Below, one piece after another: positions 29,517 to 29,792 of a stretch of DNA of 64,000 nucleotides. Source of the stretch: Candidatus Latescibacterota bacterium (GTDB taxonomy: Bacteria; Latescibacterota; UBA2968; UBA8231); assembly GCA_965219385.1 (NCBI GenBank), contig CBDCNM010000002.1:1420936-1484935 (forward strand), written 5' to 3'. The position numbers were made by a program, and so were the translations under genes. Position 1 is the stretch's first letter. The number at the start of each line of letters is the position of its first letter. The notes beneath the pieces are model-generated. The model did no database searches, was not told where the DNA came from, and worked only from the letters and a program-made list of their open reading frames with translations.

Positions 29517-29792
29517 ATGTTGCTTCATTTTCGTAGAAGATTGACCGAATTTGTCACCAGCGAGAGCGGCTATGTGTCGCCGCGAGCGGGTCTGCCGGTG
29601 GCCTGGGTAGTAGGCCTCCTGCTGGCAGCCGCCGTGGTGTTGACGCCCGATCCGGCCGAGGCCTCTTGTGATGTGGATATTGCTTGGACTAACTGTGATC
29701 CGCAGGGATGTGCCCAGACTTGCGCCGAAGGGTATTCAGCCTGCAACAGCGGCTACTGTTGCGGGGGAAACAATGTTTGCCACTGTACCTGA
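29517..29792 (+). CDS. Cys-rich defensin-like peptide precursor with pilin-like leader
   Basis: GAAAGGA RBS; leader RRRLTEFVTSESG; hydrophobic stretch; AEA|S site; 42-aa core with 9 Cys including CxxxC, GYC and CxC. Confidence 0.75.
   Translation: MLLHFRRRLTEFVTSESGYVSPRAGLPVAWVVGLLLAAAVVLTPDPAEASCDVDIAWTNCDPQGCAQTCAEGYSACNSGYCCGGNNVCHCT

Follow-up and report, generated by a model that had tools for sequence, protein, structure and literature searches.

A predicted defensin-like mini-protein and its peptidase and redox cassette in a Latescibacterota bacterium: a possible exported peptide-and-immunity system

A small gene in a Candidatus Latescibacterota bacterium ends in a cysteine-rich stretch whose spacing recalls defensins and scorpion toxins. 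How would a bacterium cut, export and fold such a peptide, and what would the peptide be for? The gene lies in the window (the whole stretch of 64,000 nucleotides that was analysed), part of a genome of 5.8 Mb in 2 contigs that is 94% complete. The account favoured here, with a probability of about 45%, is that of an exported, oxidatively folded peptide-and-immunity system. It starts from what the genomes contain: a gene with a family of relatives under a conserved leader, precursor genes linked to those for peptidase and redoxins, no detectable pilus genes, and peptides adjacent to partner genes that are present in excess.

The precursor and its predicted fold

The gene and its parts are these:

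29503..29509, forward strand: ribosome-binding-like site GAAAGGA, seen directly
29517..29792, forward strand: precursor gene, 91 aa, with a class-III-like leader, a signal peptide and a Cys-rich core
29517..29570, forward strand: Met1-Gly18, hydrophilic leader ending in F-x3-E-S-G, with a predicted A24 cut after Gly18
29571..29663, forward strand: Tyr19-Ala49, polar/Pro stretch, hydrophobic segment, Pro and A-E-A (from hydropathy)
29664..29792, forward strand: acidic 42-residue core with a predicted cysteine-stabilised αβ (CS-αβ) fold (AlphaFold2, fold searches)

Is this a gene at all? The core occupies precursor residues 50-91 (29664-29789), with the stop codon at 29790-29792, and the precursor has no match in Pfam or NCBIfam. 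Its frame of eight cysteines occurs 5 times among the 263,961 six-frame segments of the genome, always in copies of the family, whereas 3 shuffled genomes each have none, so the core is not a product of chance. Together with the homologues described below and with purifying selection on the leader between copies (pN 0.038 against pS 0.32, window versus the copy at C2:4113k), these counts rule out a chance ORF. The core itself has an excess of amino-acid changes between copies, a figure drawn from 11 non-synonymous and 2 synonymous differences. The one match in a pattern scan of genome contigs, a partial one in Cupriavidus to the hydrophobic stretch, was taken as chance.

The composition of the core agrees with the sequence-only reading, which had given it four acidic residues, no Lys or Arg and an odd number of cysteines. 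There are 3 Asp, 1 Glu and 9 Cys, the last at positions 2, 11, 16, 20, 27, 32, 33, 39 and 41 as that reading had spaced them, and with 1 His the composition gives a net charge of −4. The computed mass is ~4325.7 in the reduced state and ~4317.6 with four disulfides (8 Da less). A cationic membrane-lytic peptide had been thought unlikely, and the family speaks the same way: 48 of 67 related cores carry a net-negative charge, and 40 of the 49 representatives scored are acidic.

Does the core fold as was proposed, with a helix tethered to a β-hairpin? The AlphaFold2 model (pLDDT 91.4) runs β-α-β-β, with strands at 4-7, 30-33 and 38-41 and a helix at 13-23, and the nearest folds to this prediction are CS-αβ defensins. 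Searched with Foldseek, it drew plant and fungal defensins and scorpion toxins in all but one of the matches listed, the best at E 0.28 and none at E 0.001 or better. The top VIA alignment is with the plant defensin AtD90 (Z 5.1, rmsd 2.2, 42 residues aligned), Ah-AMP1 reaches Z 4.8, and the best 12 rows are all small defensin or toxin chains at Z 3.9-5.1, a Z of 5.1 lying within the range that the tool deems common. These scores for a predicted structure are modest, as expected at 42 residues, yet mutually consistent.

Eight cysteines (2, 11, 16, 20, 27, 32, 39 and 41) are invariant across 19 defensin-type cores and no other position is; among them are the C11, C16xxxC20, C32 and C39xC41 of the claimed signature. 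The pairs proposed earlier, C11-C32, C16-C39 and C20-C41, match that signature, and the list was incomplete in omitting C2 and C27. As these two are also invariant, four disulfides are likely (the predicted pairs being C2-C27, C11-C32, C16-C39 and C20-C41) and C33 is left over. The idea of a free thiol with a function of its own fares worse: the Cys count is even in 54 of 60 single-domain cores from the loci and in 44 of the 49 scored representatives, and the ninth cysteine, C33, is local, so a conserved functional free thiol was rejected. Compared as profiles against the PDB, the family reaches brazzein and plant defensins at E 0.3-4, which is not significant, and a Pfam AtDEF-like match at E 0.003 appears in one of 26 family members; similarity at this level gives no demonstration of common ancestry. 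Because the core has no Lys, it lacks the KCXN motif, which with its Lys marks the α-KTx potassium-channel toxins according to the available text of PMC11561630. The peptide is thus real and, judged from the model, an acidic CS-αβ mini-protein with probably four disulfides, a further member of a known fold class. The sequence-only reading was confined to the core and says nothing of leader, cassette or partner arrays.

Leader, peptidase and redox proteins

How far does the family reach? Searched with an HMM, 1.84 billion representatives yielded 67 matches, 65 of which are on inspection leader-plus-Cys-core precursors (the remaining 2 are unrelated repeat proteins), and a word-indexed search found ten homologues of the precursor. 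Pfam and NCBIfam assign no meaningful family across 26 members, and 60 relatives gave only three weak, unrelated matches; the Atlas clusters nearest to the precursor are mostly from Poribacteria (score 0.86, a lead only). The genome holds four full-length copies, with leaders almost identical and cores divergent, besides broken or partial ones at C2:789k, 4204k, 4175.9k and 1529.7k. Loci from relatives carry 72 distinct leaders, 67 of them with at least 4 Cys behind. The strict 8-Cys defensin frame fits 17 of these 67 cores, the rest being CC, CCC, 4-6 Cys and multi-repeat scaffolds. Five loci have long cores of 210-290 aa under the same leader, with 14-20 Cys in apparently repeated modules (L063:835-1653, L068:5350-7253, L069:5947-6720, L072:8894-10799 and L073:8928-9749). 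Among the damaged copies of the genome, those near C2 789200 (L003) and 4204400 (L006) have both lost the leader and are still followed by a CBM9-like gene, the 4204k copy also having a frameshift within the core; at G000:C2:4175890-4176282 (L005:5891-6283, reverse strand) a recombination product fuses the 5' part of a CBM9-like gene in frame to a C-terminal half-core.

The precursor in the window is surrounded by the following genes:

26949..27513, forward strand: CBM9-like gene copy, 5'-truncated and frameshifted (tblastn, two pieces, 64% and 79% identity)
27632..28210, forward strand: RnfG/NqrC-like protein, membrane-anchored, with a CxxC (C107/C110) and the flavinylation motif DGx[ST]GAT
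28200..28772, forward strand: thioredoxin 1, membrane-anchored, ResA/TlpA-like (CGAC; Pfam AhpC-TSA, E 1.2e-10)
28769..29347, forward strand: thioredoxin 2, membrane-anchored, ResA/TlpA-like (CPYC; Pfam AhpC-TSA, E 7.9e-15)
30209..31183, forward strand: secreted CBM9-like protein, 324 aa, with a C-terminal S-x-TWGRIKA motif; candidate cognate partner
31239..32309, forward strand: A24 prepilin-type membrane aspartic peptidase, 356 aa (PF01478, E 1.8e-8)

What would the leader do? Across 26 diverse precursors F12, G18 and W30 never change, and the leader Gly is present in 62 of 67. A hydrophobic segment of 17 residues (26-42) is followed by Pro and A-E-A, a predicted signal peptidase I site; an AxA stands after this segment in 42 of the 49 representatives scored, and the genome has two signal peptidase I genes. 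From these features we infer two successive cuts. On the cytoplasmic side, the A24 peptidase would cut behind Gly18, and the leader would be the tag by which cores of many scaffolds reach the cassette; the remainder would act as a Sec signal, from which signal peptidase I would free the core at A-E-A. The first 8 residues after Gly18 have a mean hydropathy of 0.15, with Pro and Arg among them, and Glu+5 is found in 6 of 49 representatives. Since the 21 residues behind Gly18 are unlike a class III hydrophobic tract and Glu+5 is rare, A24 cleavage may be atypical or, alternatively, the A24 protein may act mainly as a scaffold. An HXS-type precursor was considered and rejected, as no Hxs model of NCBIfam matches the precursor or 60 relatives. 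None of the cassette genes scanned with Pfam and NCBIfam was recognised as a radical SAM gene.

Is the peptidase tied to the precursor? Its catalytic Asp residues are kept (D30 in 45 and D90 in 46 of 48 homologues), and the 4 cassette copies are the only PF01478 matches in the genome. In the phylum, 32 of 168 genomes have the peptidase. Within the family (76 genomes searched), all 28 genomes that bear it have precursors and none of the 46 precursor-negative genomes has it, a count in which kin are not independent. Loci picked by a near-complete A24 match have a precursor in 29 of 31 cases (28 by the sequence filter plus one long precursor at L069), and the other two lie near contig starts. The redox genes travel along: of 39 loci that have a near-complete A24, 38 carry thioredoxin 1, 34 thioredoxin 2 and 26 the flavin-motif protein. 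No sigma-54-like sites were found upstream of the cassette genes (14 matches in the window against 17 expected), and sigma-70 and terminator scans stayed at chance level.

How would the disulfides be formed? The flavin-motif protein has its CxxC in 32 of 32 homologues and DGx[ST]GAT in 31 of 32, and the best Foldseek match of its model is RnfG (7zc6_G, E 3.9e-4); it thus has the traits of ApbE-flavinylated FMN-binding proteins, that is the [S/T]GA[S/T] motif, an RnfG/NqrC-like predicted fold and ApbE in the same genome, and may be a flavin-linked partner in thiol redox chemistry. When alignments of the A24, flavin-motif and CBM9-like proteins were searched against PDB sequences, nothing significant came up. 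The CxxC of thioredoxin 1 is kept in 44 of 47 homologues; thioredoxin 2 has CxxS in 7 of 39. Neither DsbB nor VKOR was found in the genome, and a metagenome contig encodes a 556-aa fusion of thioredoxin-like domains with a CxxC/flavin-motif domain (L085:559-2229, forward strand). With ApbE present, DsbB and VKOR undetected and the fusion ORF at hand, a flavin-linked disulfide relay is plausible: the two thioredoxin-like proteins would form and shuffle disulfides in the core and exchange electrons with the flavinylated CxxC protein, which would substitute for the undetected DsbB or VKOR. ResA/TlpA proteins usually act as reductants and the genome contains a DsbD/CcdA domain, so electrons in such a relay may flow in either direction. 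The fusion protein also has a C-terminal Cys/His motif and adjoins a solute-binding-like gene, and its 4 kb contig contains no precursor or A24. It comes from a metagenome scan with the flavin-motif protein that gave 80 loci, among them one full cassette (L082), one partial (L083) and this fusion; the remaining loci were generic FMN-binding matches without a precursor. Judging from motifs and gene content, the A24 cut, the Sec and signal peptidase I release and the redox folding together seem quite probable.

Partner genes and possible roles

What is the protein next to the peptide? The nearest Atlas clusters of the CBM9-like protein carry PF06452, with labels mostly from Latescibacterota or Gemmatimonadota. 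Comparison of 18 copies reveals a conserved scaffold with hypervariable loops, and 31 of the 34 CBM9-like match pieces in the genome lie within 7.5 kb of a cassette element. The truncated copy in the window spans ORFs 26949-27404 and 27322-27513. For 14 of 20 defensin-type cores a CBM9-like gene comes directly after the precursor; for the 47 other cores the next gene encodes an FG-GAP protein with a FlgD-Ig tail in 26 cases and an ADOP/MacB-like permease in 3, and no cross-over of partner type between the two groups was seen among 67 precursors. At L039, L038 and L052 (families f2 and f4), CCC- or CC-type cores, up to three in tandem, are followed by duplicated ADOP/MacB-like permeases. Partners carry sorting-like C-terminal tails. 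Across 31 related genomes of genus g13, precursor and FG-GAP partner counts correlate (Spearman 0.83, partner counts near 17 being lower bounds), partners at least equal precursors in number in 29 of the 31, and 6 have partners with no detected precursor. In the spacer after the peptide gene of the window (29997-30035, forward strand) an isolated partner C-terminal motif is found (ITWGRIKA, then a stop); it is apparently the remnant of a deleted CBM9-like gene and may mark a site of array recombination.

Adjacency of peptide and partner, excess of partners and genomes with partners only make up the layout of a toxin-immunity array. In such a system the acidic peptide would act on a specific target in the envelope of related bacteria, with no lysis of membranes; the downstream CBM9-like gene would encode an immunity protein that binds and neutralises the peptide, and arrays of extra partner copies would guard against the peptide variants of neighbours. 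On gene order and copy number, this toxin-immunity role looks evenly balanced. It is weakened by two observations. In a quick A24 tree the defensin-type cassettes form one side of a single branch (support 88), so their pairing with CBM9-like genes may be one historical event; and CBM9-like homologues occur at 1-3 copies in many cassette-free genomes, a copy-number contrast that is confounded by assembly quality.

Where do these bacteria live? Four RNA libraries of one study, labelled sponge metagenome, have contig pieces that match the window with 0 differences at best over 161-237 bases, and contigs of the same libraries that match the leader continue into different cores. The bacteria with the cassette are uncultured and probably sponge-dwelling. 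When the cassette and a 19.5 kb control stretch are each divided into 30 bins, RNA-library contigs cover 14-18 bins of the former and 19-22 of the latter; with the control covered too, they give no demonstration that the cassette is transcribed. At 11856-11896 and 16301-16342 of the window many unrelated RNA-library contigs align and then diverge, and these stretches are possibly conserved small repeats or regulatory elements. The window also opens with a forward-strand ORF of at least 2306 aa with repeats (5-6925), which we take to be probably a large surface adhesin, and has a lower-GC stretch at 40741-48048, where the ORF at 40741-42063 is presumably AAA-type ATPase-like and other ORFs appear to resemble restriction/modification genes.

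Could the peptides be directed at an animal instead? In this account, which comes close to the sequence-only reading, their targets would be receptors or channels of an animal host, a sponge for instance, and the partner would carry the peptide or be displayed beside it as an adhesin; the fold is common to eukaryotic signalling peptides and channel toxins, and both the sponge libraries and the sorting-like tails of the partners would fit. Excess partners, partners without peptides and the permease partners of other families would be left unexplained, and a core without Lys cannot offer KCXN, so we hold this account unlikely. Somewhat less likely is a signal of kin recognition or quorum, in which a strain-specific peptide is read by the variable partner as its receptor and the surplus partners pick up the peptides of neighbours. 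Pairing and partner excess would be expected there too, and the cores are acidic and non-lytic; however, Pfam finds no signalling domain in the CBM9-like and FG-GAP partners examined, and no kinase or regulator gene was recognised in the cassette of the window, other loci having been screened for known cassette genes only.

Is the product perhaps a pilin of some kind? A true pilin was rejected, as no 21-residue hydrophobic tract follows the Gly, Glu+5 is rare and no ATPase or platform was detected. In a looser form, A24 would remove the leader, the hydrophobic segment would anchor the chain and the Cys domain would be a variable surface tip; the class-III-like Gly, the intact A24 peptidase and the multi-repeat cores of ~210-290 aa at some loci agree with such display. 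The genome, however, has no PilB/TadA-type or type IV filament ATPase above cut-off, no platform protein and no secretin. A platform gene is found in 11 of 132 genomes of the class, one of the 11 having the cassette, and filament machinery is absent from 31 of 32 cassette genomes, judged by the pilus platform gene. The AxA behind the hydrophobic segment and Pro at +4 and +9, which would break the α1 helix of a pilin, also tell against membrane-tethered display, which is improbable. Least probable of all is a metal-binding or redox peptide, whose cysteines would be kept partly reduced by ResA-like reductants and bind metal. Nine Cys, acidic residues, ResA-like neighbours and the DsbD/CcdA domain would suit it. 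Against it stand the even numbers of Cys in scaffolds that are unrelated, the confidence with which a normally disulfide-held fold is modelled, and the extreme variability between the cysteines, needless for a metal store.

If the peptide-and-immunity reading is right, what would be gained? A bolder version of it, put forward tentatively, has a prepilin peptidase that no longer serves pilus building and recognises a single leader on dozens of disulfide scaffolds with no relation to one another, defensin folds included. In that version a flavinylated CxxC protein takes the place of DsbB in disulfide formation, and every peptide has its loop-variable immunity protein, recruited separately from at least three folds; eukaryote-like mini-proteins would then make up a polymorphic toxin system. 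The peptide-and-immunity reading itself would give bacterial A24 peptidases a job outside pili, point to a candidate flavin-based route of disulfide formation outside the cytoplasm and reveal a natural collection of disulfide-rich mini-proteins, well over a hundred in number, that share one leader. A folding cassette for many scaffolds could aid bacterial production of correctly folded disulfide peptides, and the peptide-partner pairs would be a testable model for strain competition among uncultured, probably sponge-dwelling bacteria. Bacterial members with four disulfides would also feed the debate over the origin of CS-αβ defensins.

Relation to known systems

How new is all this? The bacterial CS-αβ fold is known; the machinery around it is apparently undescribed, and literature searches aimed at a peptide with an A24 and redox cassette found no description, most subscription papers lying outside their reach. 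Cardoso et al. 2024 described 74 bacterial cis-defensins (PMC11561630). The CS-αβ fold pointed out by the sequence-only reading is no surprise in a bacterium, since bacterial peptides of this kind, acidic ones included, appear already in the available parts of PMC11561630 and PMC6989792. Class III cis-defensins (cellulosin-type, Polyangiaceae) share with the core, by the accessible text of PMC11561630, a secreted CS-αβ domain, the γ-core GxC, acidity towards the N-terminus and a predicted fourth bond of the first Cys, given in the paper both as 1-5 and as 1-6. The present core has an acidic N-terminus and the invariant C2 and C27, but a strand is modelled where class III, by its published description, has an unstructured tail (PMC11561630). 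In that text, as far as available, there is no Latescibacterota-like taxon and no mention of a double leader, an A24 peptidase or a redox cassette. Actifensin and actinomycesin (Sugrue et al. 2020, PMC6989792) likewise combine multiple CS-αβ copies with a conserved leader and variable core; unlike the present peptides they have three disulfides, a GA-type leader and ABC transporters, with no mention of an A24 peptidase or thioredoxin in the accessible text. Plant defensins, drosomycin and α-KTx toxins have the β-α-β-β fold predicted here, but their fourth bond runs from first to last cysteine, whereas C1-C5 is predicted in this core, which is acidic and without KCXN.

For the leader, the relatives are the type IV (Flp/Tad) prepilins with TadV/CpaA-type A24 peptidases, which by the available text of PMC4471445 share a hydrophilic leader ending in Gly and an A24 enzyme with both Asp residues. 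The present precursors differ in mostly having no Glu+5 and no 21-residue hydrophobic tract, in their second AxA site, and in a genome with no ATPase, platform or secretin detected. For the redox genes, Meheust et al. 2021 (PMC8238504) described ApbE-flavinylated thioredoxin/DsbD clusters in which an extracytoplasmic [S/T]GA[S/T] substrate likewise sits beside thioredoxin-like genes; they use DUF3570, DUF4266 and DsbD, and the accessible text gives no A24, variable peptide or FMN domain with a CxxC of its own. The HXS system, with its HxS-repeat precursor and radical SAM maturases, does not fit, and the available text of PMC13128918 has no mention of A24 or prepilin. The sublancin cluster (sunI, sunA-sunT-bdbA-sunS-bdbB), as far as the text of PMC4336743 is available, devotes one enzyme to removing the leader and two thiol-disulfide oxidoreductases to the peptide, with an immunity gene next door, as may be the case here; it also has a peptidase-containing ABC transporter and a glycosyltransferase. 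Unlike sublancin, the present loci have an A24 peptidase, a predicted Sec and signal peptidase I route, a flavin-motif CxxC protein, many scaffolds and partner arrays. By analogy, sublancin is nevertheless the closest in cluster logic. Polymorphic toxin-immunity arrays place a variable partner directly next to a variable effector and add extra orphan partners. The layout here is the same, the putative toxin being a disulfide peptide of 40-60 residues.
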